Shown here piece by piece: positions 4,061-35,115 of a stretch of DNA of 43,953 nt (positions are counted from its first letter, which is position 1; each line of letters starts with the position of its first letter). The translations under genes were made by a program, and so were the position numbers. A model generated the notes under the pieces. It saw nothing but the letters and a program-made list of their open reading frames with translations, ran no database searches and was not told the origin of the DNA. Origin of the DNA: a virus. The DNA lies in the UHGV virus genome UHGV-0199997; one strand, written 5' to 3'.

Positions 4061-4422
4061 ATATTAACGACTACACGGGCATACCTTACGACTTTCGCAA
4101 ACGCAATTGCTGGCATCACGTGCGCATTGTCCGCGCGGACGCCGGGTTAGACACCCCGGCGTTCGACGTCACAAGCCCTACGGCAATTAACGAAGCGTTT
4201 GACGAAGGTCATCGCAACACAAAGGGGCTTACGAAGATTGATAAGCCTGAAAACTTCTGTGCGGTGCTTATGGGGTATCGCCGTGGTGGTCGTATCGTGT
4301 GGCACGCAGGAGTTTACTTCGACGGGATGGTGAGTCATTGCGAGCTTGCATCCCGTCAGGTACGGCTTGACAGGCTGGCGGATCTCAGAGACACGTACAC
4401 GGAGATTGAATTTTGGCGATAA
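4057..4422 (+). CDS. tail assembly protein K-like, NlpC/P60-type peptidase domain
   Basis: ATGA overlap start; Cys in NCWHH and His in WHAGVYFDGMVSHCE are consistent with an NlpC/P60 catalytic pair as in the lambda gpK C-terminal domain. Confidence 0.55.
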   Translation: MNINDYTGIPYDFRKRNCWHHVRIVRADAGLDTPAFDVTSPTAINEAFDEGHRNTKGLTKIDKPENFCAVLMGYRRGGRIVWHAGVYFDGMVSHCELASRQVRLDRLADLRDTYTEIEFWR

Positions 4423-6968
4423 TCCTGCACTACACGCGAAACGCCGACGGCGCTTTCGACCGTACAAAACACGTCGGGATGCCGATGGAGTTTGTCGTTA
4501 ACCGTATTCCCGACGGCGTGCCTGCGCGAGTCTACCTCGGTGAGATTGGTGATGATACCGACGTAACCGACGACTTCGATGCGCTTAAAGACGAAGACGC
4601 GGTATACCACATTATTGAGGGTGCGGGTAGCGGGGCGCTTGGTGCCGTTAGTAAGGTGTTCGGTTTTATCCTTAAGCCAATCGCCAAGTTGTTCGGCCTG
4701 AACATGTCCGCTAACGCCAACTACACGGCGACTAACAATCAGACAACGTCACCGAACAACAGCCTTACCGACCGCTCAAACAAACCACGCCCTTACGAGC
4801 GCTCTTATGACATCTGCGGTACTGTGCAGACAATCCCTAACGACCTTATGCAGACGTATAAGGCGTTCAACTCAACTGGTGCTTTGCTGGAGTATTCGTA
4901 CTATGACGCGGGACGCGGGCATCTGCATATTGAGGCGGATGGCGTCACAGAAGGCGACACCCTTATAAGCGACATCACGGGTTCTTCTGTTGCCGTGTAC
5001 GCGCCGTATACTTCCCCGAACAACACCGCATCTCCCCAACTACAAATCGGCGACGTCATTGACCAGAAACTCTATGTGACATACTCCAACGACGACGTTG
5101 ACGGTATTGTACTGAAAGCACCAAACGACATCGGAGCTAACCCAAGCGCCGACGGCACCGCTAAACGTATTTCAAACACCGGCTACATTTATGACCCGTC
5201 AGGCGACTCTGCTTTTTCTGAGTTTCTTAGCGTCGGTGATGTCGCGGTGCTGAGCAACTTTGACGTTGCTGATGTCACTAACCTGAACGGCTCGTTTGAG
5301 GTTTTATACGTTGACGACTTCGAAGTAAGATTAGCCGTAAACGGTGCGTCTAACTGGACGGCGTTGACCAGCGGACAGACGTACACCCTAACAGAGCGTT
5401 CAGATACGTTTATTGGCCCGAGCAACACCTATGACGTATCCCTGACAGACTGGTATTACATGGTGCGCGGAGAGGTTGACCGTGTGCTCGCTAACGTAGC
5501 CGGGCAGAACGGCCTATACAAATACGACGGCGGCTATAACCGCACCAGCGTAACCGTAGAACTCCAGTACCAGATGATTGACTCTCAGCGCAACCCGTTG
5601 AGTGATATTTACACGGTACAGGCTACAATTACAGGCAACAATACGGATTACGTCGGTACGTCTATCTACGGACAGTTGCCGACAGCATCTCGTTTCCGCG
5701 CCCGTATGCGCCGTGTAACTAATTTTGACAAGGGCTACGACGGAACGGTAAGTGACGAGATAACCTTCATCAACCTGTACGGGCAGTCGCTGGACACAAC
5801 CCCACACTACGGCAACCGAACTACCGTGCATTGCGCACGTAAACAGACGCCGCGCGCCGCCAGTATCGACAACCCGGAACTACGCATGATTGCTACCGAG
5901 ATGTGCTACAAATACCTCGGCAATGGGGTGTTCGATACGGTAATGACTCCGAACACTCAGGCAGTGCAGTCGCTAATCCGACTGGCCCGAGACCCAGCGG
6001 TTGGTAATCTGAAACTGACAACGGTAAACATGGATAAGTTGCTTGCTGTGCAGGAAGAAATTGAGTCGTATTTCGGAAGTGAATTAGCGGGGCAATTCTG
6101 CTACACGTTCGACGACTACGACACCACGATGCAGGACATTGTTCAGACCATAGCGGAAGCCGTTTTCTGTACCGCATACCGTAAAGGCGCGGATATTATG
6201 TTGCGGTTTGACCGTCCGGTTGCGGGGCCTGAAATGGTGTTCACCCACCGCAGCAAAACTACCGGTACGGAGAAATGGACCCGCACGTTCAACGATTCTA
6301 CGACCTACGATAGCCTGTCGTTCTCGTACATCGACCCGGATACGAATGTACAGGAAACGATTTATATCCCGGAAGAACTCGGTGCAAATACGGAGGAGTA
6401 CGAATCGAAGGGCGTGCGCAACTACCAACAGGCATATTGGCTGGCGTGGCGTCGCTATCAGCGCAACACGTTAAGTAAAGTTGTCGTAGAGTTCGAAGCT
6501 ACGGAAGAAGGCGCTCTCGCTACCCCAGGCGGCGTAATTAGTGTAGTTAAAGGTTCACGTATTGCACCACAGGACGGCTATATTGTTGCCGTTAATGGGC
6601 TTACACTTACGTTATCCCAGCCTGTTACGTTTACTCCTGGCGATGACCACTCCATCATTCTTAAGAAGCGCGATGGCTCGGTGCAGAGTATCTCCGTTAT
6701 CAAAGGAAGCCACGACCGCGAAGTGATTATGCTCTCTGCGCCGGAGGAGGCAATCTACACAGGGAATAGTGCGCTAAAAACTGAGTTTTCATTCGGCAAC
6801 GAAGCAAGGCATAATGCTCAGAAGATAGTTGTTTCTTCAATCGACCCGGGCGACGACCGCACGGTCAAGATTACGGGCTACAACTATGATGACGGATTCT
6901 ATAAATACGACGGCGTCGCGCCATACGGCAGCGGTTTCTCCGACGGATTCAGCAATGGTTTTAATTAA
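4413..6968 (+). CDS. tail tip protein (gpI-like N-terminus fused to gpJ-like host-specificity region)
   Basis: 851-aa ORF; N-terminal ~100 aa (AVYHIIEGAGSGALGAVSKVFGFIL) resembles lambda gpI, the rest is a large beta-rich tip protein. The track start is TTG 4413; ATG 4476 or 4482 are alternatives. Confidence 0.6.
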   Translation: MAIILHYTRNADGAFDRTKHVGMPMEFVVNRIPDGVPARVYLGEIGDDTDVTDDFDALKDEDAVYHIIEGAGSGALGAVSKVFGFILKPIAKLFGLNMSANANYTATNNQTTSPNNSLTDRSNKPRPYERSYDICGTVQTIPNDLMQTYKAFNSTGALLEYSYYDAGRGHLHIEADGVTEGDTLISDITGSSVAVYAPYTSPNNTASPQLQIGDVIDQKLYVTYSNDDVDGIVLKAPNDIGANPSADGTAKRISNTGYIYDPSGDSAFSEFLSVGDVAVLSNFDVADVTNLNGSFEVLYVDDFEVRLAVNGASNWTALTSGQTYTLTERSDTFIGPSNTYDVSLTDWYYMVRGEVDRVLANVAGQNGLYKYDGGYNRTSVTVELQYQMIDSQRNPLSDIYTVQATITGNNTDYVGTSIYGQLPTASRFRARMRRVTNFDKGYDGTVSDEITFINLYGQSLDTTPHYGNRTTVHCARKQTPRAASIDNPELRMIATEMCYKYLGNGVFDTVMTPNTQAVQSLIRLARDPAVGNLKLTTVNMDKLLAVQEEIESYFGSELAGQFCYTFDDYDTTMQDIVQTIAEAVFCTAYRKGADIMLRFDRPVAGPEMVFTHRSKTTGTEKWTRTFNDSTTYDSLSFSYIDPDTNVQETIYIPEELGANTEEYESKGVRNYQQAYWLAWRRYQRNTLSKVVVEFEATEEGALATPGGVISVVKGSRIAPQDGYIVAVNGLTLTLSQPVTFTPGDDHSIILKKRDGSVQSISVIKGSHDREVIMLSAPEEAIYTGNSALKTEFSFGNEARHNAQKIVVSSIDPGDDRTVKITGYNYDDGFYKYDGVAPYGSGFSDGFSNGFN

Positions 6969-18375: not shown

Positions 18376-20633
18376 TCCAAATCCTCATCTGTCACCACCA
18401 GCATTTCATTCGGTTCGTATATTGTCTTCGGAATTTTGTTGTCGTTTATACCCCACGGCAGCCGGTACTGCTTAGGTATAGGTCTGTTGTTGCCATCCAG
18501 ACCTGAGACGATAACCCCAGCCTCGTGCATCTCTTCCAGTTTCTTTCTAAGGTCGTTATTGGCGTTAATTGGTACGCCATAACTATCTTCTTTCGCGGCT
18601 TTGACGATAGCCGACATAGAGAACCCTCGCTTATCGTCGCCCTGCTCCTGCAATTTACCCAATGCGTAAATAACCGTAGCCTCTTTGGTGTCCAGTTTCT
18701 CGAACTGGCCTACCTTTTCTTTAACGGCTTCCTTCTGTTCGTCGGTCATACCTTCTACTTTCTTCACGAAGACAGAGAAGGCGTTAAAGTTAACAAAGAC
18801 ATCGATGTGCGGGTTTCCTGCGTCAAAATCGCGGACATCATCACTACTGTACCCTTCCGGAAGACCCATGAAGTTGTGAGTTGGCTCTTTCTTTTTCGGT
18901 GGCTCCGCTATCTGAATCTTCTGTATTACAAATCCTCTGGCTTTCTGCCGTTCTCCGTTTCGGTTCTTTATGTGATACAGGTTTATCCCTAAGTTATTGT
19001 CGTTGTCAGGCTTATGCAGGAACATCCCGTTATCGATGGAGTTGTGAAAGTCACTTCCACCCTTCGGCATCATGCCGTTTTCCGACGGTACTGTTTCGTC
19101 GATGTTTTTAGTCGGGTGCACCATAGCACCTACCGCGGCGTTAAGCGTCGACGCTATTTCGTTAAGTGCCTGCGCCGCTTCTTTCATTGACCTGTTGTCG
19201 TTTTCGTCAAAGCCAGGTATGCAAGTTTGCAGGGTATCAAACGTAACCTTTACAATTTTCTCTTCACCGGCAACACGGCGCATCATTCTCACCACCTGAC
19301 GTCGCCATGCTTCGTCGAGTAAGTTACATCCCTCCGCAACACAATCGATAATGTGCAAGCGGTCCAAGTTATCGCCGAGGGCAATCTGCAAAGATTTTTT
19401 ATGTCGCTCGAACGACCGCACACCTTCACCCGCAAAAATAAACGCATGACCTTCCGCTACCTCAGCCCCGCCGAACGCATATCTTTTTTCGGCAGCAATA
19501 GCGGCGTCAATCGCCATACTAAATGTTGACTTACCGGTATGCGACTTTGCACAAATGTAGAATGATTCGTTAGTCTGCATAAGACCATCTACGACGGAGT
19601 ATGCAGGTTCTTTTTCTAATTCCGGCTCGTCTTCAAGGTCTTCCAGCGTGCAAGTTACAGGTTCCTCGTTCTCTGTGCGGTGCAGTTCTTCAATCTCTTC
19701 ATCAGGTAAATCAGGCAGAGCCGCGCGAATGCTGTTAACGCTGATAGGTTGCTTGTCTACGTTAAGCTCGTCAGGTAGACCACACATACGCAGGGCCAAA
19801 TGCTGCCTACGGTTAAGCTCGGTGCAAGCGCCGTTGTTTGTATGCTGGCAGACAAAGCGCACTTCTTTACCGTCTAGCATGATGCTGGTGGAGCCTTTGC
19901 CTGTGTGCAGATGTTCGTTAGGGCATGGCACTTCGTACCCGCGCCCGGAAGATAAAGCATCAAGCCCAAGCTCGGCTTCGCAGAAATGCGCTATATCTGC
20001 GTTAAGCCCATGCTCATCGGCAGCAAGTGTCTTGGCTTCGCGTTTACGCAACCCCATCTCTTCGGCTTTCTTGATGTACCGCTCGGCACGGATAACACGC
20101 CCCTCTGTAACCGTTATCTTCGACTCTTTATGCGGCAGGTAGATAAGGCGGTTGCCATCTTCTGTGCAGTGGTCACGCAGCGATTCATCTATTTCTAACT
20201 CTGCACAAATAGCCCGTTGCACCATCCACGCATCGTTAGAGTTAAACGGAGTGCGAGCCGGAACCAGAACGCGGAATGCGTAATCCCCGTTTTTACACGC
20301 GTGCTGATGCGATGCCGTTGTGTGCAGAATATTGAAGAACGGCGCGTTCTTGAATTTGCGTGTCAGGTCGCGGTACTGAGTACGGTTGAGATGGTCGAAG
20401 TCGAACTTAACCACACTGTCTTCCAGAATCGCATTCTTACGGCGACCGCCAACAGGAGCAATAGCCTTCTGCTTAATCTTAGCCGCGTCGTATTCTTCCT
20501 TAGTCCACGACGGGTCCACGGACAAACGCTTCGATGTATCGCAGACGTACTCTACAAACTGCTCCAGCGGCATTTCACGTGCTACAGGGTTTTTATCGAA
20601 TGTGTTACGCAGCGTTGCAAAAACAATATTCAT
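18372..20633 (-). CDS. replication protein, primase/helicase-like P-loop NTPase
   Basis: 753 aa; Walker A in AKSHTGKST followed by a RecA-like region; Cys/His-rich segment (CPNEH...CQHTNNGAC) in the N-terminal half. Confidence 0.65.
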   Translation of the reverse strand: MNIVFATLRNTFDKNPVAREMPLEQFVEYVCDTSKRLSVDPSWTKEEYDAAKIKQKAIAPVGGRRKNAILEDSVVKFDFDHLNRTQYRDLTRKFKNAPFFNILHTTASHQHACKNGDYAFRVLVPARTPFNSNDAWMVQRAICAELEIDESLRDHCTEDGNRLIYLPHKESKITVTEGRVIRAERYIKKAEEMGLRKREAKTLAADEHGLNADIAHFCEAELGLDALSSGRGYEVPCPNEHLHTGKGSTSIMLDGKEVRFVCQHTNNGACTELNRRQHLALRMCGLPDELNVDKQPISVNSIRAALPDLPDEEIEELHRTENEEPVTCTLEDLEDEPELEKEPAYSVVDGLMQTNESFYICAKSHTGKSTFSMAIDAAIAAEKRYAFGGAEVAEGHAFIFAGEGVRSFERHKKSLQIALGDNLDRLHIIDCVAEGCNLLDEAWRRQVVRMMRRVAGEEKIVKVTFDTLQTCIPGFDENDNRSMKEAAQALNEIASTLNAAVGAMVHPTKNIDETVPSENGMMPKGGSDFHNSIDNGMFLHKPDNDNNLGINLYHIKNRNGERQKARGFVIQKIQIAEPPKKKEPTHNFMGLPEGYSSDDVRDFDAGNPHIDVFVNFNAFSVFVKKVEGMTDEQKEAVKEKVGQFEKLDTKEATVIYALGKLQEQGDDKRGFSMSAIVKAAKEDSYGVPINANNDLRKKLEEMHEAGVIVSGLDGNNRPIPKQYRLPWGINDNKIPKTIYEPNEMLVVTDEDLE

Positions 20634-20758
20634 TTCTTTTTCTCCGCACGTTCTAAGGCTTCCTGCATACGACGCATTGCGCGGTTCATCTTTACCGGTG
20701 CGAAGAAATCAGCGCCGTGTTTCTGGCGGCGTAGCTGTGGAACTATTAACTTCGTCAT
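20630..20758 (-). CDS. small basic protein (42 aa), not in the ORF track
   Basis: MTKLIVPQLRRQKHGADFFAPVKMNRAMRRMQEALERAEKKK; RBS AAGGA 7 nt before the ATG; its stop overlaps the ATG of the downstream gene (ATGA). Confidence 0.4.
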   Translation of the reverse strand: MTKLIVPQLRRQKHGADFFAPVKMNRAMRRMQEALERAEKKK

Positions 20759-20826
20759 TGTATAATCCTTGTGCTTACTTTGATGATTTGTACTTTAACC
20801 CCGACGTTCTGGCGTTGGGGTTTCTT

Positions 20827-21039
20827 TTATTTATCGCCTGCAAACCACGCGTGCGCAGAATCATAGAAACGACATTTACTTAACATGTCTACCGGCATCT
20901 TAATAATGCGCGTCGGTTCCGACAAATGATTAGGTTTACATATTTCTGCATAGAATCCGCTGTCGGTAATTTCTGACGCAAACTTAAACCAGTATTTAAC
21001 TTTACCGTTCTCAAAGTAACAACCCATACGCCCAATCAT
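20827..21039 (-). CDS. hypothetical protein (70 aa)
   Basis: ORF with ATGA coupling to the upstream HTH gene. Confidence 0.45.
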   Translation of the reverse strand: MIGRMGCYFENGKVKYWFKFASEITDSGFYAEICKPNHLSEPTRIIKMPVDMLSKCRFYDSAHAWFAGDK

Positions 21040-21218
21040 TTCACGTTCTCCTTAATCCACGCTTCAACTTTATTACGGTCAAATGTTCCAGGTAAACGGC
21101 GGCCCATAACCTTAATACAACAGTCGGGGAATTTACCACTGCGTAACCAGTTATTAATTGTCTGACGTGTCACCCCAATACGTTCTGCTACTTCATTCTG
21201 GGTCATGTAATGTTGCAT
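21036..21218 (-). CDS. small HTH DNA-binding protein (AlpA/excisionase-like fold)
   Basis: MTQNEVAERIGVTRQTINNWLRSGKFP helix-turn-helix; ATG 21218 with RBS AGGAG; divergent from the early rightward operon. The track start is 21290. Confidence 0.55.
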   Translation of the reverse strand: MQHYMTQNEVAERIGVTRQTINNWLRSGKFPDCCIKVMGRRLPGTFDRNKVEAWIKENVK

Positions 21219-21325
21219 TTTTATATCTCCTGTTTGTTTAGTGAAGCCAAGTATAGGATAGCGTGAATGTAAAAGCAACCAAAACACCACACAAAGTTAC
21301 TAAGATACAAAAGATGCTACTGGTA

Positions 21326-21470
21326 TTGACTTTTACTAAGAAATATGCTAAGCTCGTCCTGAGCTTGTGAAGTATGAACAAGCGACCGCGGTGCGCGGCA
21401 GGCGAAACGAGCACGTCTCGACGTGTGGAGTGAGTCTCGCTGGCGCATTCGGAAGGGCCATAGTCTATTG
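21326..21470 (+). promoter_or_regulatory. promoter (TTGACT-N17-TAAGCT) plus conserved leader element, copy 1
   Basis: -35 at 21326-21331 and -10 at 21349-21354; 34-nt block identical to copy 2 at 21358-21391 containing a perfect hairpin GCTTGT-N9-ACAAGC; second conserved block at 21448-21470. Confidence 0.5.
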
Positions 21471-21541
21471 TTATTCCCGCCTAAGTATCTAAGTTACTGA
21501 TTTGACGTAGGTTAGAACCGCAAGCTCACTCACTCACTCTT

Positions 21542-21573
21542 GGTGCCTTCGGCACCCCGTTCGTTTCGTTTCG
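21542..21573 (+). terminator. hairpin with U-rich tail (weak terminator) closing the copy 1 leader
   Basis: GGTGCC-TTC-GGCACC followed by CCGTTCGTTTCGTTTCG. Confidence 0.35.
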
Positions 21574-21623
21574 CTCGCTACCCTATTACACGAAAGAATC
21601 ACAACGGCAACGTAACTATTCTC

Positions 21624-21659
21624 TTGCACACCCCAATATAATAGGATACTATTCACTTA
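21624..21659 (+). promoter_or_regulatory. conserved promoter element (TTGCAC-N17-TACTATTCACTTA)
   Basis: One of at least five near-identical ~36-bp elements, each 25-40 bp upstream of an RBS and start codon; this one precedes the gene at 21687. Confidence 0.5.
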
Positions 21660-21686
21660 TCGAAACGAGACAGAGGAGTGAGGGTT

Positions 21687-23210: not shown

Positions 23211-23351
23211 ATGATTCCCGCAGCAACTTGGATGGAAGGGTATAGGTCCTGGACTTTAGGCGAACTGGTTGATGCTTACGAGATACTAGGCAGCACTTCG
23301 GTGTGTAACGGCGACACGAAAGTGATAACAATGGGGTTTGATGATGAGTAA
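23211..23351 (+). CDS. small protein (46 aa), not in the ORF track
   Basis: MIPAATWMEGYRSWTLGELVDAYEILGSTSVCNGDTKVITMGFDDE; promoter element and RBS directly upstream. Confidence 0.35.
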   Translation: MIPAATWMEGYRSWTLGELVDAYEILGSTSVCNGDTKVITMGFDDE

Positions 23352-24012
23352 CAAAAACGAAGTATTCGAGTACCTGATTGACCAGCTACGGCAGCAGCTA
23401 CCTGTCGTAGATGTAATGGGTGAGATTGAACGGTGGAGTATCGACCGTAGTATTGCTGGCCGCGGTAACTATACCGACGAGGAAAACGTCATAATCGATG
23501 CTTACATCGGCCTGGAGCACAACACATACAAGCAACAGTGCGAAGACCTGGCACAAGAGGTACAGTCACTCAAGAATCAGTTACGTGATGCGTCTGCACA
23601 GATTAAGGAGTTGCAGGAAGACAACATTAGGAAATCCGAGCACATATCACATATGACCGGGCAATCGTCCGCATATCGTAATGACGCGTTGCGCTTTCAA
23701 GCGCAAGTTGATGACCTGGTAAAACGACTGGCTACCGCTACCGGTGACGTGGAGGCGTACAAACTTATCCGCAAAGGCGGCTACATTTCTGGTGGTCAGC
23801 GATACGTAGTAGGTGAACACGGACCTGAGCAATCTGGTTGCCGCAAAGAAGATACACAAGAATGCAACCATACCTGGAGATTCGTTAATGGTAAGGCTCC
23901 CGCCGTTTGTATTAATTGCGGCGTGACTAAATCCAGCGAGTGTGAACACGAATGGCAATTTTACGGAGTAGGGTTTCCGTGTATGTGCATTAAATGCGGG
24001 CTGAAGAAATGA
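23341..24012 (+). CDS. hypothetical protein with coiled-coil centre and C-terminal Cys-rich zinc-ribbon-like region
   Basis: C-terminal CNHTW...CINCG...CEHEW...CMCIKCG; the track start is TTG 23338. Confidence 0.5.
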   Translation: MMSNKNEVFEYLIDQLRQQLPVVDVMGEIERWSIDRSIAGRGNYTDEENVIIDAYIGLEHNTYKQQCEDLAQEVQSLKNQLRDASAQIKELQEDNIRKSEHISHMTGQSSAYRNDALRFQAQVDDLVKRLATATGDVEAYKLIRKGGYISGGQRYVVGEHGPEQSGCRKEDTQECNHTWRFVNGKAPAVCINCGVTKSSECEHEWQFYGVGFPCMCIKCGLKK

Positions 24013-24901: not shown

Positions 24902-25342
24902 ATGACGACTATCGCGTTCGACGGAAAGACAATGGCATGTGACACGCGTGTTGTGTGCGGGAGTAACTGTTACAACACAGACACAAAGATATACGAGAAT
25001 GATTTTGCTGTTATCGGGGTGGCTGGCGATGCCGGAGTCGGAACTATGCTTATCGATTGTCCGTATATCCTCCAGGCCAGACACTATGACTTCGATTTCG
25101 AAGCCCTGGTGTTCGTGAAAGATACAGAAAAAGTGTATAAAGTCGCGTTTTATAAATCGTGGGATTGTGCACTAAGTTCGGTTATCCCTGTTGCCGATAG
25201 CTTTGCCGCCGTTGGTTCCGGTTCTCCTTATGCACTGGCGGCCATGGAATGTGGATATTCAGCACATGGAGGTGTGGCCGTTGCCTCGAAGTTCGACACT
25301 AACACGGGCGGCAAGATTATTACCAAACAACTATTAGGATAA
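24902..25342 (+). CDS. HslV-like Ntn-hydrolase (proteasome beta-type peptidase homolog)
   Basis: N-terminal MTTIAFDG (Thr2 nucleophile after Met removal), ...FAVIGVAGD..., and GSGSPYALAAME matching the HslV GSGGxYAxAA region. Confidence 0.6.
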   Translation: MTTIAFDGKTMACDTRVVCGSNCYNTDTKIYENDFAVIGVAGDAGVGTMLIDCPYILQARHYDFDFEALVFVKDTEKVYKVAFYKSWDCALSSVIPVADSFAAVGSGSPYALAAMECGYSAHGGVAVASKFDTNTGGKIITKQLLG

Positions 25343-25401: not shown

Positions 25402-25710
25402 TTGGATAAATTTACCGAAACAGTGACAGGCTGGCTTCTCGCTGCCGCACTCGCCGGAGGGGTCATCGGACTACGACAACATAAGTCCGTTATTTCTGGC
25501 CCTATCGACGGCTTCTGCTTTATCGCAACCGGCTTCACTTGCGCCGTATTTGGTGCGCCTCTTGCCGCCCAATGGTTTGGCATTACCGGGGAGCGTGAAA
25601 TCGCTGGCCTCGGATTTATCATCGCTGTCCTCTGGATGCCCATCTATTCCCGCCTTTCTGGCATCGTCGCCGGAGAATACATCGCACGTCGAGGAGGCTC
25701 GGATGAATGA
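25402..25710 (+). CDS. putative holin
   Basis: 102 aa with 2-3 predicted TM helices and a charged C-terminus; RBS GGAGG before TTG 25402; just upstream of the endolysin. Confidence 0.5.
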   Translation: MDKFTETVTGWLLAAALAGGVIGLRQHKSVISGPIDGFCFIATGFTCAVFGAPLAAQWFGITGEREIAGLGFIIAVLWMPIYSRLSGIVAGEYIARRGGSDE

Positions 25711-25975
25711 GCTATTCTGGTTCGGCGGTATGCTGGCAATCGGTGGCGCATCGCTGTTTAATGTGTATCATCCCAGCGTTGACGACGGGTTATTTGGTCG
25801 GGTGCTCTATATCCTGACCGCTATTGTCTGCGCCGCCGGGTGTATCCACCTGTTACAGGGCAGCATGTCACCTACGTTGCCCGAGACGTTAATCACATTA
25901 GTCGCGCTGCGTCAGATTCGTCAGGCGTGGCTGTCGTACGGAGGACATAAGCGTGTCTCGAAATATTTCAGATAA
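25703..25975 (+). CDS. small membrane protein (second holin/antiholin-like)
   Basis: RBS GAGGAGG before ATG 25703; two hydrophobic helices; overlaps the holin 3' end and the endolysin 5' end. Confidence 0.45.
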   Translation: MNELFWFGGMLAIGGASLFNVYHPSVDDGLFGRVLYILTAIVCAAGCIHLLQGSMSPTLPETLITLVALRQIRQAWLSYGGHKRVSKYFR

Positions 25976-26456
25976 TGGATTGCAGTTCAAAAAAGCGTGG
26001 GAAAAGTTTCGCGGAACTGCGTACAAAGCAACAAAGAACGAAAAATACTGGACTATAGGCTGGGGCCATACCGGGCCTGATGTGTACGAAGGGCAGAAGA
26101 TTACCGAAGGCCAGGGACTTCTGTTACTGAACCGTGATATGCAGTGGGCGGTGAAAGCAGTCGATGACGTCGCACATCCCTCCCTGACCCAAGCCCAGTT
26201 TGATGCCGTCGTTGACCTGGTGTTCAACGCAGGGACTGGCGTGATTGCGGCTACGACAGGGACGGGTAAGGCACTACAGCGGGGAGACATCCCTACCCTA
26301 CGGCACAAGATGAGTCAGTTCATTAACCAGCGCAACCCTAAGACCGGTAAACTTGAACCTGTTCTGGGCCTGCGCCGTCGCGTAGCGGGTCGTCTGGCGC
26401 TGTTCGACGGTAAACCGTGGCGGGAGGCAGAGGCTATCGGGAGGGCTGTTAAATGA
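25953..26456 (+). CDS. endolysin, phage lysozyme family (GH24-like)
   Basis: RBS GGAGGA before GTG 25953; the N-terminal E...TIGWGHTG block and the overall pattern match P22 gp19 / T4 lysozyme-type muramidases. Confidence 0.75.
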   Translation: MSRNISDNGLQFKKAWEKFRGTAYKATKNEKYWTIGWGHTGPDVYEGQKITEGQGLLLLNRDMQWAVKAVDDVAHPSLTQAQFDAVVDLVFNAGTGVIAATTGTGKALQRGDIPTLRHKMSQFINQRNPKTGKLEPVLGLRRRVAGRLALFDGKPWREAEAIGRAVK

Positions 26457-26669: not shown

Positions 26670-26700
26670 CCCGGCCCTGACCTAGCCGGGATTTTTTTTA
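26670..26700 (+). terminator. rho-independent terminator
   Basis: CCCGGC-N9-GCCGGG hairpin followed by a T8 run. Confidence 0.7.
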
Positions 26701-26784: not shown

Positions 26785-26973
26785 ATGATGACTAAGATTA
26801 AGCATACCGATAACTGGGGCGATTTCATGGAGATAGAGAAGTGCCGGGACGGGACATTACTTATAACTTGTACAGACGGAGATAGCGACGAATCGGTTAG
26901 TGTTAACGTGAGTATGGGTGATTTTATGATTATTGTTGAGCAAGTGGCGTCTTTTTACGGAGATGATAAATGA
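26785..26973 (+). CDS. hypothetical protein (62 aa)
   Basis: RBS GGAGTAGAGAG before the ATG; acidic small protein. Confidence 0.5.
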   Translation: MMTKIKHTDNWGDFMEIEKCRDGTLLITCTDGDSDESVSVNVSMGDFMIIVEQVASFYGDDK

Positions 26974-27119
26974 AAATCACAGATACCGAAGCATTTGAAG
27001 ACGCACAACTGATGGCACGTATTGCCGTTAGCAACCTGGGCAGCAATATCCCGTCGGACGCGTTCTGGTCCGCGGCGATGCAGGCACTTAAAGCAGCTTA
27101 TGCAGGAGAGAAGAAATGA
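26970..27119 (+). CDS. small protein (49 aa), not in the ORF track
   Basis: ATGA overlap start; MKITDTEAFEDAQLMARIAVSNLGSNIPSDAFWSAAMQALKAAYAGEKK. Confidence 0.4.
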   Translation: MKITDTEAFEDAQLMARIAVSNLGSNIPSDAFWSAAMQALKAAYAGEKK

Positions 27120-27270
27120 GCTAACAAAGTCCAGCAAGCCGGCCATTACGAGTAGGCCGTAAAGTTAGTCACACCCCGTTCCCGACACGCGAGGAACTGA
27201 TGAAACGTAACAGTTTCCCTGGGCCGGACAAGAACAAGTATCTCAATCGCATGTGGGGAGAGCGTAAAGA

Positions 27271-27441
27271 ATGAAAAAGTTAATTGCAGACGTTGAGCTT
27301 GGCGATGTTATCCGTATTGATGATGACTACGGCGGCTACGACGTAGTGGCGAAGCGCATCGAGTGGGATTTTATGTTGCCGTTTGTCACGATTAACCGTG
27401 AAATCATGTTCGCTAAAACTGATTGGGTAGAGGTTCGATAA
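27271..27441 (+). CDS. small protein (56 aa), not in the ORF track
   Basis: RBS GGGGAGAG before the ATG; MKKLIADVELGDVIRIDDDYGGYDVVAKRIEWDFMLPFVTINREIMFAKTDWVEVR; its stop TAA overlaps the next ATG. Confidence 0.4.
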   Translation: MKKLIADVELGDVIRIDDDYGGYDVVAKRIEWDFMLPFVTINREIMFAKTDWVEVR

Positions 27442-27638
27442 TGACTGACCGTGAATACGAAAAGATGATGGTAGAGGCTGTTAACGGCGGTGTAGACATC
27501 GGTCACGTGATGCACGTCCTGAATACTAAAATTTCGGTAGCGGAGCAAATGGTTGAGTCGCTTTACGAGACACGCCGCGAACTGATTAACCGCTTCAACC
27601 TGAACAAAGTCTTGGGTGACGGGCATGAAAGCGCCTGA
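27441..27638 (+). CDS. hypothetical protein
   Basis: ATG 27441 within track ORF 27423-27638. Confidence 0.5.
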   Translation: MTDREYEKMMVEAVNGGVDIGHVMHVLNTKISVAEQMVESLYETRRELINRFNLNKVLGDGHESA

Positions 27639-27807
27639 ACCAGTAGTTATCGATGGCGTCCTGTGGAAACCCTACTCTGTTAACCACATAGACGCTGACG
27701 GGAAGAAGTTCAGCTTCTACATTTTTGCAATTAGCCGGGAGCATGCCGCTTGTGTGGTCGACGATATCAGAGAAACGGCGTGGCTCGGTGATGAGATAGT
27801 GGGGTAG
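27616..27807 (+). CDS. hypothetical protein
   Basis: ORF overlapping the upstream 3' end; ATG 27625 is an alternative start. Confidence 0.45.
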   Translation: MTGMKAPEPVVIDGVLWKPYSVNHIDADGKKFSFYIFAISREHAACVVDDIRETAWLGDEIVG

Positions 27808-27809
27808 TT

Positions 27810-27980
27810 ATGTTCAGTGACATCAACGCTGCAATCGAAGAGGCGATATGGCGCCGCTACAACGGTGGGCAACAGCGGCACTTCTGCCTGGTGCAGCGCG
27901 GTAACGTGATTGCCGTGGTACAGGACCGCGATAACAAATATCCGAATGCGATGTGGACAACGAGGAATTTCTTAGGATGA
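27810..27980 (+). CDS. small protein (56 aa), not in the ORF track
   Basis: MFSDINAAIEEAIWRRYNGGQQRHFCLVQRGNVIAVVQDRDNKYPNAMWTTRNFLG; ATGA coupling to the downstream gene. Confidence 0.4.
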   Translation: MFSDINAAIEEAIWRRYNGGQQRHFCLVQRGNVIAVVQDRDNKYPNAMWTTRNFLG

Positions 27981-28213
27981 TTACCAGCATTCCGAACCTG
28001 ATTAAAGAATTTGGCACGATGGCCGAGACATGCCGACAAACCGGCATCAACGAGATGACGATTGCCAAGTACAGCAAAGACGTGGACTGTGAGCGCCACG
28101 TAATTTATAACAACCGTCTGATGACGCATGTTAAGACAAGCCCGGTGTTATTCACGCGCCGGGGCATCACTAAAACTGAGCAACGCATTGCTAAAGGGGA
28201 GAGTGGAGAATGA
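27977..28213 (+). CDS. hypothetical protein, possible HTH
   Basis: ATGA overlap start; segment ETCRQTGINEMTIAKYSK is HTH-like. Confidence 0.45.
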   Translation: MITSIPNLIKEFGTMAETCRQTGINEMTIAKYSKDVDCERHVIYNNRLMTHVKTSPVLFTRRGITKTEQRIAKGESGE

Positions 28214-28392
28214 TTGCGTTTTTGAAGGCACTTGATGCCGCAGGCAACCTGGTGTTTTGGCTGGCCTTTTTAGTTGTGCTGATAAAACAACCGACTTTGT
28301 TTAACAGTCTTCCTAGCCATCTGTGGTGGCCTATGTTTTTAGGCATGATTGTGTCAGGAGTGGCTGGTATCCTTTTGTGGTTTTTCAAATGA
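28210..28392 (+). CDS. small membrane protein (2 TM helices)
   Basis: ATGA overlap start; two hydrophobic helices (LVFWLAFLVVLI, MFLGMIVSGVAGILLWFF). Confidence 0.5.
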   Translation: MIAFLKALDAAGNLVFWLAFLVVLIKQPTLFNSLPSHLWWPMFLGMIVSGVAGILLWFFK

Positions 28393-31902: not shown

Positions 31903-32088
31903 TTAACAAGCTGATGTTGTCCAGTAATCACCATAATCATTTACGTAAAATTTCTTCATACCAGACCACCCGAAGTTCTTACATGTCTTTTTGAATCGCT
32001 TCATTACCTGTGTTCTTGTCAGCATCAAAACACTACCGTTTCCATCTCTTGCGAAATCTCCGCCGGACTTATATGGTTTCTTTTCCAC
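31903..32088 (-). CDS. small AT-rich moron protein (61 aa)
   Basis: Minus-strand ORF between portal and head-morphogenesis genes with its own upstream promoter element and downstream terminator; GTG start with RBS AGGGGG; clearly AT-richer than its flanks. Confidence 0.5.
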   Translation of the reverse strand: MEKKPYKSGGDFARDGNGSVLMLTRTQVMKRFKKTCKNFGWSGMKKFYVNDYGDYWTTSAC

Positions 32089-33697: not shown

Positions 33698-33727
33698 AAG
33701 GCCCCTTATGGGGCCTTAATTTTATTT
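33698..33727. terminator. bidirectional rho-independent terminator
   Basis: AAGGCCCC-TTAT-GGGGCCTT followed by AATTTTATTT; shared by the convergent genes 33233-33694 (+) and 33722-34243 (-). Confidence 0.65.
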
Positions 33728-34243
33728 AAATCGCGCTGGCATTAGCACCATAAATGCAGTGTTTGAAAATGATATTTTGCATCCTCTGATTTGGTCCTGG
33801 AAATCGAAACGAGCGATTTCATTTTTGTATGCCTTAGAAATCTTGTGCGCGTCCGCCAAGTAGCGCAGGGTGAACCCTATGCTGTCAACCGCCCCCGGCG
33901 TGATGTGCGCCACACGTCTCCAGTCAGGAAACCTTCCGTCTACAACATCTACCGGAAGTGTACATATAAGCGCACGACTATCGTCATAGAAAGAAACGCT
34001 GCTGTTGTCGTGGTCTACTTCCGCGTAGTTAAATTTAGAAGGCTCTCTCCCTTTGATGTCTATGAGAACCGCATTCTCAACGTTTGTCTTAACGTTGTCG
34101 CAGAACAATCTATGACCGTCCGTAGACACTATCAATCCCTCCGGGTCTATGTAAAAAGCATTCAAATAATAGCGCACATCATTTTTAGCTCTGCATATTT
34201 TTGCCCCTACATACGCAGGGAAAGTAATTACTGTAGTAGCCAT
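33722..34243 (-). CDS. DnaN (beta sliding clamp)-like mini-protein
   Basis: 173 aa; VSTDGHRLF matches the conserved DnaN TDGHRL motif and the C-terminus FMVLMPARF matches the DnaN YVVMPMRL tail; own promoter element upstream; RBS GAGGAGGAG. Confidence 0.55.
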   Translation of the reverse strand: MATTVITFPAYVGAKICRAKNDVRYYLNAFYIDPEGLIVSTDGHRLFCDNVKTNVENAVLIDIKGREPSKFNYAEVDHDNSSVSFYDDSRALICTLPVDVVDGRFPDWRRVAHITPGAVDSIGFTLRYLADAHKISKAYKNEIARFDFQDQIRGCKISFSNTAFMVLMPARFK

Positions 34244-34300: not shown

Positions 34301-34366
34301 ACTATTTATTAGCCTATTCCAGTTATTCCGCTCAATTGTAAATGTTGGAATAAACTATTCGAATAG

Positions 34367-34509
34367 TTGACTTTTCACTAAAAATATGCTAAGCTCCACC
34401 TGAGCTTGTGAAGTATGAACAAGCGACCGCGGCGCGGGCAGGTAACGGAGCGGGACGTAAGTCCTGAGTGTAGTTACGCTGACGCGTTCGGAAGGGCCAT
34501 ACTCTATTG
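34367..34509 (+). promoter_or_regulatory. promoter (TTGACT-N17-TAAGCT) plus conserved leader element, copy 2
   Basis: -35 at 34367-34372 and -10 at 34390-34395; conserved blocks at 34399-34432 and 34487-34509 are identical or near-identical to copy 1. Confidence 0.5.
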
Positions 34510-34575
34510 CTTGTGTAAAAAGTAACTGGTTTACTGAGATTACGCCGTTTCTATGTTTAAATGATAAGGACTAGC

Positions 34576-34602
34576 GCCCCGCTTTATGGCGGGGCTTTAC
34601 TT
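34576..34602 (+). terminator. hairpin terminator between the copy 2 leader and the spanin gene
   Basis: GCCCCGC-TTTATG-GCGGGGC followed by TTTACTT, about 20 nt upstream of the spanin RBS. Confidence 0.45.
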
Positions 34603-34619
34603 ATCGAGAAAGGAGAAAC

Positions 34620-35006
34620 ATGAATCTTAAAGCAACTGTCGTAGCGGGAGCATGTTTCATCATCCTGGCTTACGCACACGGCATCCACCAGTATCGCAGC
34701 GGCTGGCACGAAGGCCGGGCGAATCTCGTTTCGCAGCAACAGCAGAAAGCACAAGCTGAGTTAGCGAAGAAAACACAACGGCAGCAGCAGGATGAATCAA
34801 AGGCCGCAGCCGCTGACAACGAAGGCAAGACGAAATCAGAGGTGATTACCCGTGAAGTCGTTAAGTACATTAAAACGCCTGGCCGCAGCGTGTGCACTTT
34901 TGACCCTGAGCGCGTGCAGCTCAAGTCCCGCGCCGTCGCAAACGCAAATTCCATCCCCGGATATGACGATGATGCAGCCTCCGTGCAAACTGGCGCCGCC
35001 AAGTAG
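34620..35006 (+). CDS. i-spanin (Rz-like)
   Basis: N-terminal TM helix followed by a Q/A/K-rich coiled-coil periplasmic domain; contains an embedded +1-frame lipoprotein gene. Confidence 0.7.
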   Translation: MNLKATVVAGACFIILAYAHGIHQYRSGWHEGRANLVSQQQQKAQAELAKKTQRQQQDESKAAAADNEGKTKSEVITREVVKYIKTPGRSVCTFDPERVQLKSRAVANANSIPGYDDDAASVQTGAAK

Positions 35007-35115
35007 CGACGCTGACGAGGATTTGGCTATCGACGTTCAGAACGCCGAATGTGTACGGCAACTGAGACTGAAAGTGTTCATGTTGCAGGATTACGTGAGG
35101 AATATTCTGGAATAG
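34852..35115 (+). CDS. o-spanin (Rz1-like lipoprotein)
   Basis: Signal peptide with lipobox LSAC, Pro-rich mature region; overlaps and extends past the i-spanin gene. Confidence 0.7.
   Translation: MKSLSTLKRLAAACALLTLSACSSSPAPSQTQIPSPDMTMMQPPCKLAPPSSDADEDLAIDVQNAECVRQLRLKVFMLQDYVRNILE

Follow-up and report, generated by a model that had tools for sequence, protein, structure and literature searches.

A probably complete three-step lysis system encoded at two inherited loci of a Kagunavirus-type genome

Introduction

Why are the spanin genes of this phage encoded far from its holin and endolysin genes, and does this separation have a role in the timing of lysis? We addressed these questions in the window, i.e., the whole stretch of DNA analysed (UHGV virus genome UHGV-0199997), whose 43,953 bp are about the size of a complete genome for this group of phages (41-46 kb among relatives). 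A 10.7-kb stretch covering both lysis loci has approximately 90% identity to the Escherichia phages vB_EcoS_XY2, EM1, NTEC3 and others, and it matches 498 phage records, mostly of Salmonella and Escherichia siphophages. By its sequence, the window is assigned to Kagunavirus, subfamily Guernseyvirinae. ARAGORN found no tRNA or tmRNA genes in it, and no Rfam family was detected at gathering thresholds, the leader RNA described below giving chance-level matches only.

Our assessment is that the window very likely encodes a complete, canonical three-step lysis system of the Gram-negative type with its genes in two places, and that this layout is inherited, the split reflecting an old relocation which most likely has no special timing role. 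The roles of the five lysis proteins (a predicted holin/antiholin pair, endolysin, i-spanin and o-spanin) are assigned by homology and sequence features.

The holin-endolysin cassette

The first lysis locus consists of three overlapping genes and a downstream terminator:

25402..25710, + strand: putative holin/antiholin A, 102 aa; TTG start with GGAGG upstream; phrog_2359 holin, E=5e-29
25703..25975, + strand: putative holin/antiholin B, 90 aa; start overlapping the stop of A (ATGAATGA); phrog_2508 holin, E=1e-33
25953..26456, + strand: predicted soluble endolysin (glycoside hydrolase/phage lysozyme type), 167 aa; GTG start; PF00959 Phage_lysozyme, E=2e-24; phrog_7; PDB 8hp8, E=1e-68
26670..26699, + strand: intrinsic terminator closing the lysis-cassette unit; CCCGGC...GCCGGG, then A and eight T; dG -13.8 kcal/mol, z -3.6

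Pfam gave no match for either holin or either spanin, and their families come from PHROGs. Proteins A and B have the features of a holin/antiholin pair, with two to three apolar segments each, charged C-termini (RRGGSDE and HKRVSKYFR) and coupling to the endolysin gene. In A, apolar stretches cover residues 7-24 and 37-52, with 19-residue hydropathy peaks at 38-56 and 67-85, and its orthologue in phage Schulenberg is annotated as 'antiholin/holin class II, 3 TMDs'. The apolar stretches of B are residues 4-19 and 34-48, and its Schulenberg orthologue is annotated as 'holin/antiholin, 2 TMDs'. The endolysin gene overlaps that of holin B by 23 nt, and the overlaps indicate that the three cassette genes are translationally coupled. 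The PDB entry matched by the endolysin is titled 'Endolysin mtEC340M'. Its own N-terminus has no hydrophobic, transmembrane or SAR segment in a hydropathy scan, as in canonical non-SAR endolysins of the lysozyme type, and the protein is therefore predicted to be cytoplasmic and dependent on the holin to reach the wall.

The terminator lies about 215 nt 3' of the endolysin gene and is followed by a promoter-like site; the Schulenberg record has an annotated terminator in the corresponding position. The strength of this terminator implies that the lysis cassette ends a transcription unit, and it is in this sense that the first-pass annotation was right to place the holin and endolysin genes at the end of an array. 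Its calls of holin-like proteins and a lysozyme-type endolysin agree with the PHROGs, PF00959 and PDB 8hp8 matches, and all its coordinates hold.

The spanin pair

The second lysis locus encodes two overlapping proteins:

34620..35006, + strand: predicted i-spanin, 128 aa; phrog_2536 Rz-like spanin, full length, E=4.5e-56
34852..35115, + strand: predicted o-spanin precursor, 87 aa; GTG start with GAGG upstream; phrog_1267 over residues 9-86; phrog_5672

The i-spanin gene has the ribosome-binding site AAGGAG 6 nt upstream of its start. Its product has a single N-terminal transmembrane segment (residues 5-19, preceded by Lys4) and a charged periplasmic domain (18 K+R and 13 D+E) and carries Cys92. 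It thus combines type II inner-membrane topology with homology to known i-spanins, and Klebsiella phage 2b LV-2017 encodes, in a canonical cassette, a spanin with which it shares 38-43% identity. The o-spanin precursor has the signal peptide MKSLSTLKRLAAACALLTLSA|CSS with the lipobox L-S-A-C, the lipidated position being Cys22 and the +2 residue Ser, i.e., a signal peptidase II signal that lacks an inner-membrane retention residue at +2. Its mature part of 66 aa is proline-rich (8 Pro) and contains Cys45 and Cys67, both invariant among the o-spanin homologues compared. The lipobox is kept as LSAC, LSGC, LCSC or LASC in 8 homologues, and signal and lipobox are conserved across Kagunavirus, Jerseyvirus, a Dhillonvirus and a lambdoid Klebsiella phage. 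The two genes overlap out of frame by 155 bp (34852-35006), the overlap length also published for phage Jersey, and the identity of the spanin proteins to annotated relatives is 90-98%. The call of an overlapping i-spanin/o-spanin pair at 34620-35115 is thus upheld by PHROGs, by the transmembrane segment and by the lipobox, and the transmembrane and lipobox predictions proposed as a check on it gave every sequence feature expected of spanins.

This pair belongs with a known family. Kongari et al. described in 2018 a 'Jersey' family of two-component spanins with overlapped architecture, a 155-bp gene overlap and conserved o-spanin cysteines Cys45 and Cys67, whose members include AG11 and HK578 as well as K1G, K1H and K1ind1-3, the K1G, K1H and K1ind phages being Kagunavirus (PMC6139136). 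The window's pair shares with this family the N-terminal transmembrane segment of the i-spanin, the lipoprotein nature of the o-spanin, the 155-bp overlap and Cys45/Cys67, and differs only by ordinary sequence divergence.

The start of the o-spanin gene is annotated in two ways. The XY2, EM1, fBC-Eco01 and Schulenberg records begin the protein at an internal ATG, giving 48 aa and no signal peptide, so that the lipoprotein signal is lost; the AG11 record has the 87-aa form. The 87-aa start given by the first-pass annotation is right and is preferred over the 48-aa form in GenBank.

No second spanin was found beside the endolysin. A six-frame scan of the window for lipoprotein signals gave 34852-35115 as the only credible o-spanin candidate, with none of the lipoprotein type near the endolysin, and the six-frame lipobox scan found no unimolecular spanin there. 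Other matches to the lipobox pattern (at 4199, 7633, 19648, 31518- and 610-) fall within other genes in a different reading frame, and most lack a ribosome-binding site. The small ORF that follows the endolysin gene (26472/26527-26603) has neither a transmembrane segment nor a lipobox. With no spanin pair adjoining the endolysin anywhere in this whole-window scan, the split stands.

Extent and distribution of the split

The distance from the endolysin stop to the i-spanin start is 8,164 bp, in line with the separation of about 8 kb noted earlier. The spanin genes sit in the head-gene module, between a Hoc-like (head-decoration) gene and the scaffold and capsid genes. We compared gene order with a Jerseyvirus (AG11), four Kagunavirus phages (Schulenberg, XY2, EM1 and fBC-Eco01) and a Dhillonvirus (BMA1). 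AG11 and the four Kagunavirus phages share a common order: a small-gene array, an HslV-like peptidase gene, two holin genes, the endolysin gene and small genes, and then terminase, portal, MuF, Hoc-like, spanin, scaffold and major capsid genes. In BMA1 the spanin genes are likewise found between MuF and the scaffold gene. What varies is the gene between the Hoc-like gene and the spanin unit, which is sliding-clamp-like here, a Dam methylase gene in EM1, two small ORFs in fBC-Eco01 and absent in AG11; the window differs from the Schulenberg-type layout in this phage-specific gene.

The layout extends well beyond these genomes. A tblastn search with the i-spanin matched 665 phage records. We also sorted 80 IMG/VR loci with i-spanin relatives by identity: all 40 at 42% identity or more (>=42%) lie between MuF/Hoc and scaffold/MCP, with the endolysin absent within 6 kb; the 40 loci at 35-42% identity all lie directly 3' of holin and lysozyme genes. 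Klebsiella phage 2b LV-2017 likewise has a homologous spanin pair in an ordinary holin-lysozyme-spanin cassette. The head-module context in close relatives, taken together with the cassette context in distant homologues, therefore points to a relocation of the spanin genes that is old and common to the whole lineage.

The split has also been described before. It was stated explicitly for Escherichia phage Schulenberg in 2019 (PMC6763661), and the papers on Golestan and fBC-Eco01 map the spanins close to the start and put the holins and endolysin towards the other end (PMC7203180, PMC9825357). Unclustered lysis genes are reported for T4-like phages too (PMC6139136). The view that such a separation is uncommon is therefore not sustained, given the 665 records with the i-spanin, the split in 40/40 IMG/VR loci and these earlier publications; Guernseyvirinae and Dhillonvirus-like phages have the split as a rule, and it is already known.

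Transcription context of the spanin unit

The spanin genes are preceded by a promoter, a structured leader and a hairpin, and the promoter and leader have a paralogous copy elsewhere in the window (R1 is a covariance model built from nine Kagunavirus copy-2 leader sequences):

21326..21473, + strand: paralogous promoter and leader, copy 1; R1 82.9 bits at 21359-21473
33698..33717, bidirectional: terminator hairpin separating the Hoc-like gene (+) from the sliding-clamp-like gene (-); dG -16.6 kcal/mol
34367..34395, + strand: sigma-70-type promoter, TTGACT-17-TAAGCT with TG at the extended -10
34400..34512, + strand: structured, non-coding leader, copy 2 of 2, with hairpin P1 and long irregular hairpin P2; R1 146 bits
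34576..34595, + strand: terminator-like hairpin, GCCCCGCU-UUAU-GGCGGGGC, with an interrupted U tract (UUUACUUAUC); dG -17.9 kcal/mol, z -3.9

The hairpin at 33698-33717 is predicted to insulate the spanin unit from upstream + strand transcription, and the sliding-clamp-like gene on the minus strand has its own promoter. The promoter at 34367-34395 is nearly identical to the one at 21326-21354, and the fBC-Eco01 record has an annotated host promoter in this position too. The terminator-like hairpin ends 24 nt upstream of the i-spanin ATG and occurs as the compensatory variant GCCCTGC/GCAGGGC in loci L011 and L012. The first-pass annotation had placed the spanins downstream of leader copy 2 and a terminator, and promoter, leader and hairpin are indeed found there in this order. 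It had also put them at the head of the late operon, which is only partly accurate: the spanin genes head the scaffold/capsid/tail unit, but terminase, portal, MuF and Hoc belong to other + strand units further upstream. Given its own promoter, leader and terminator, the spanin unit may have some separate regulation.

Leader copy 1 heads the rightward array in which the holin and endolysin genes lie about 4 kb downstream. R1 has exactly two matches in the window and two in Schulenberg, and one, upstream of the spanins, in AG11-type Jerseyviruses; no match was obtained in the HK022 genome (E<=1) or in Dhillonvirus-like loci. In an alignment fitted to R1, 93.4% of the cells are paired, with compensatory double changes at 18 of 29 pairs; none of 500 shuffles reaches the observed values, and slid controls pair at 26-42%. 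Independently of R1, each of the 15 leader sequence variants folds into two hairpins of one common shape, and at least 6 different apical stems occur among them. The region 34333-34632 has 96-98% identity to Jerseyvirus-type loci whose flanking coding DNA has 64-91%, and the leader region is present in 180 phage records at 95-100% identity. A scan of contigs with the leader core pattern gave chance matches in GC-rich genomes and one real match (L162), in a contig binned as Bacillota which is a Kagunavirus contig carrying leader copy 1. We also considered the leader as a small protein, and rejected this reading: a 2-nt indel disrupts, in copy 1, the frame of the 38-codon ORF of copy 2, and AG11-type leaders lack this ORF. 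Because the frame is broken between the two copies, the leader is not protein-coding.

The position, two-hairpin form and duplication of the leader recall the put elements of HK022. In Kagunavirus it is, like put, a cis element directly downstream of a sigma-70 promoter with two stem-loops, present in two similar copies per genome, each at the head of a major operon with terminators downstream (PMC9378689). It differs from put in that R1 gave no sequence or structure match in HK022 and in its length (about 95-113 nt, compared with about 70 nt for put), and AG11-type Jerseyviruses have one copy where Kagunavirus has two. The leader might thus conceivably act as a cis-acting, protein-independent processive antiterminator analogous to put, but with no sequence match this is a lead to which we give a low probability.

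Proposed lysis mechanism

Based on family membership, lysis would proceed in three steps. The proteins encoded at 25402-25975 would act as a holin/antiholin pair and permeabilise the inner membrane at a programmed time. The soluble lysozyme-type endolysin would then gain access to the peptidoglycan and degrade it. The i-spanin/o-spanin complex, pre-assembled across the periplasm and presumably inactive under an intact wall, would disrupt the outer membrane when the wall has been degraded. The spanin pair comes first in the unit that continues into the scaffold, capsid and tail genes, a layout common to Kagunavirus, Jerseyvirus and Dhillonvirus-like phages, with more distant homologues remaining in holin-lysozyme-spanin cassettes.

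In the established lambda Rz/Rz1 model, spanins build up in the cell envelope, where the peptidoglycan meshwork keeps them inactive until it is degraded by the endolysin, and the time of their synthesis does not set the time of lysis. Because spanins need only precede holin firing, the split most likely has no special timing role.

Alternative explanations

The first-pass annotation had suggested a regulatory purpose, in which the terminator at 34576-34595 would hold the spanin and capsid genes off until antitermination while the holin and endolysin genes are expressed early. The arrangement directly upstream of the i-spanin gene, with a near-consensus promoter, a structured conserved leader and a terminator hairpin, is what such coupling would use; a strong terminator of its own ends the lysis cassette, and the leader is 96-98% identical where flanking coding DNA is 64-91%. 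However, the array of the holin and endolysin genes is also headed by the paralogous promoter and leader, so that this element cannot set the two lysis loci apart. No antiterminator of the Q or N type was recognised among the small ORFs at 26785-28392, 21036-21290 and 23338-24012, and Dhillonvirus-like relatives have their spanins at the equal position with no leader. Nor do spanins time lysis in studied systems such as lambda Rz/Rz1, and since they stay inactive until the cell wall is degraded, such coupling is unnecessary. The one transcriptome of a close relative, K1B4, assigns lysozyme, MuF, capsid and tail genes to a single 'middle' class, so that lysozyme and capsid-module genes peak together, in a coarse series of 5-120 min that apparently spans several infection cycles and does not have the spanin genes among those reported (PMC12645636); the supplements of that paper hold no per-gene timing of the phage lysis genes. 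Overall, we consider antitermination coupling improbable, and differential control of the two lysis loci by antitermination unlikely. The small ORFs screened for antiterminators yielded a NinH-like protein and an excisionase-type HTH protein only.

Two further readings concern the spanin locus itself and fare still worse than coupling through antitermination. The ORFs at 34620-35115 could be head-assembly accessory proteins or spurious overlapping ORFs, the outer membrane being breached by another route; they do lie within the head-gene module, Pfam has no match for them, and many records give the second as a signal-less protein of 48 aa. Against this stand the full-length PHROG match to an Rz-like spanin, the N-terminal transmembrane segment, the lipobox and the conserved cysteines, along with 35-42% identical homologues directly after holin and lysozyme in 40 loci and in phage 2b LV-2017, and a family that is already catalogued (PMC6139136), which together make a non-spanin identity highly improbable. 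Least probable of all, to the point of being negligible, is a recent accident, e.g., foreign DNA inserted between a once contiguous endolysin gene and spanin pair. The variable gene just upstream of the spanin unit might hint at such an event, but the 8 kb between the loci are made up of conserved terminase, portal and MuF genes, and the order is identical in every Guernseyvirinae genome examined and in 40/40 IMG/VR loci. An inherited, old relocation of a genuine spanin pair is thus the preferred reading.

Comparison with known lysis systems

The predicted system shares its three functional steps with lambda S-R-Rz/Rz1, and lambda-type cassettes of lambdoid phages and prophages hold homologues of the window's spanin pair (35-42% identity). 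In lambda, however, the lysis genes all adjoin one another and are read as a single late transcript controlled by Q antitermination, with Rz1 lying entirely inside Rz, whereas the spanin genes of the window are 8 kb off in the head module and overlapped rather than embedded. T4-like phages have a much larger genome with a phage-modified transcription programme; their proteins are unrelated to those of the window, and the T4 spanin genes have a 'separated' architecture. Nevertheless, T4-like phages resemble the window in that their holin, endolysin and spanin genes are dispersed (PMC6139136), which implies that physical linkage is not needed for function.

Implications

The split between the two lysis loci re-describes a conserved, published feature of Guernseyvirinae; by itself it matters little and raises no fresh lysis question. 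Of more practical use is the o-spanin start, since many records for this lineage, including one curated by lysis specialists, mis-start the gene; annotations should adopt the 87-aa form. The leader itself may be a new element. It is duplicated, covarying and more conserved than its flanking genes, and is a reasonable target for transcription studies. If it did act as a put-like antiterminator, a single RNA-based read-through system would govern the two lysis loci as well as the virion genes in a virulent siphophage lineage.

Leader RNA and annotated genes in its region

The window carries two copies of a structured non-coding leader RNA, each preceded by a promoter:

21359-21473, leader RNA copy 1 (promoter 21326-21354)
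34400-34512, leader RNA copy 2 (promoter 34367-34395)

The RNA folds into two hairpins with strong covariation, and Rfam holds no family for it. The leader is 96-98% identical to that of relatives in which identity of the surrounding coding DNA drops to 64-91%. In AG11-type Jerseyviruses there is one diverged copy, sited only upstream of the spanins. Several relatives' annotations place 'hypothetical protein' genes inside the leader region:

L007 (AG11) 5764-5955, AG11_07
L006 1549-1665
L008 6328-6438

These genes are unlikely to be genuine, since the frame is not preserved and the region has the behavior of a structured non-coding RNA. Leader copy 1 is also present on L162 (JAEWLW010000073.1), a 6.2-kb contig labelled as part of a Bacillota metagenome-assembled genome, which is ~93% identical to window 19226-21672. 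This contig is a Kagunavirus fragment that was wrongly binned.

Lysis genes and their neighbors

In GenBank, several close relatives have the o-spanin annotated as a 48-residue protein starting at an internal ATG, and the specialist-curated record of Schulenberg is among them:

L001 13058-13204
L002 10488-10634
L006 2109-2255
L008 6882-7028

This annotation lacks the signal peptide and the lipobox. The correct o-spanin is the conserved 87-residue form with a GTG start (window 34852-35115). Two further genes adjoin the lysis loci:

24902-25342, +, HslV/proteasome-like peptidase (phrog_1040; weak PF00227)
33722-34243, -, 173-residue product; gene flanked by the Hoc-like gene and the spanin unit

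The peptidase gene lies directly 5' of the holin genes, a position kept in AG11 and XY2. The minus-strand product is weakly similar to the DNA polymerase III beta sliding clamp, and the PHROG that it matches carries the label RusA-like. Its slot differs among relatives, holding a Dam methylase in EM1 and two small ORFs in fBC-Eco01, and being empty in AG11.

A repeated, partly palindromic motif

The partly palindromic motif GAATAGTACCCTATTAT occurs eight times in the window, against 0.06 expected by chance:

15823, 17918, 17963, 21638 and 23165, one orientation
32115, 34270 and 43815, opposite orientation

At least five of the eight fall within a promoter-like TTGCAC-N17-TACTAT, and several are oriented against the local genes, facing inserted minus-strand genes (31903-32088 and 33722-34243). 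The fBC-Eco01 paper gives the same motif as a PHIRE 'phage promoter'. Together, the copies look like a single operator/promoter regulon.
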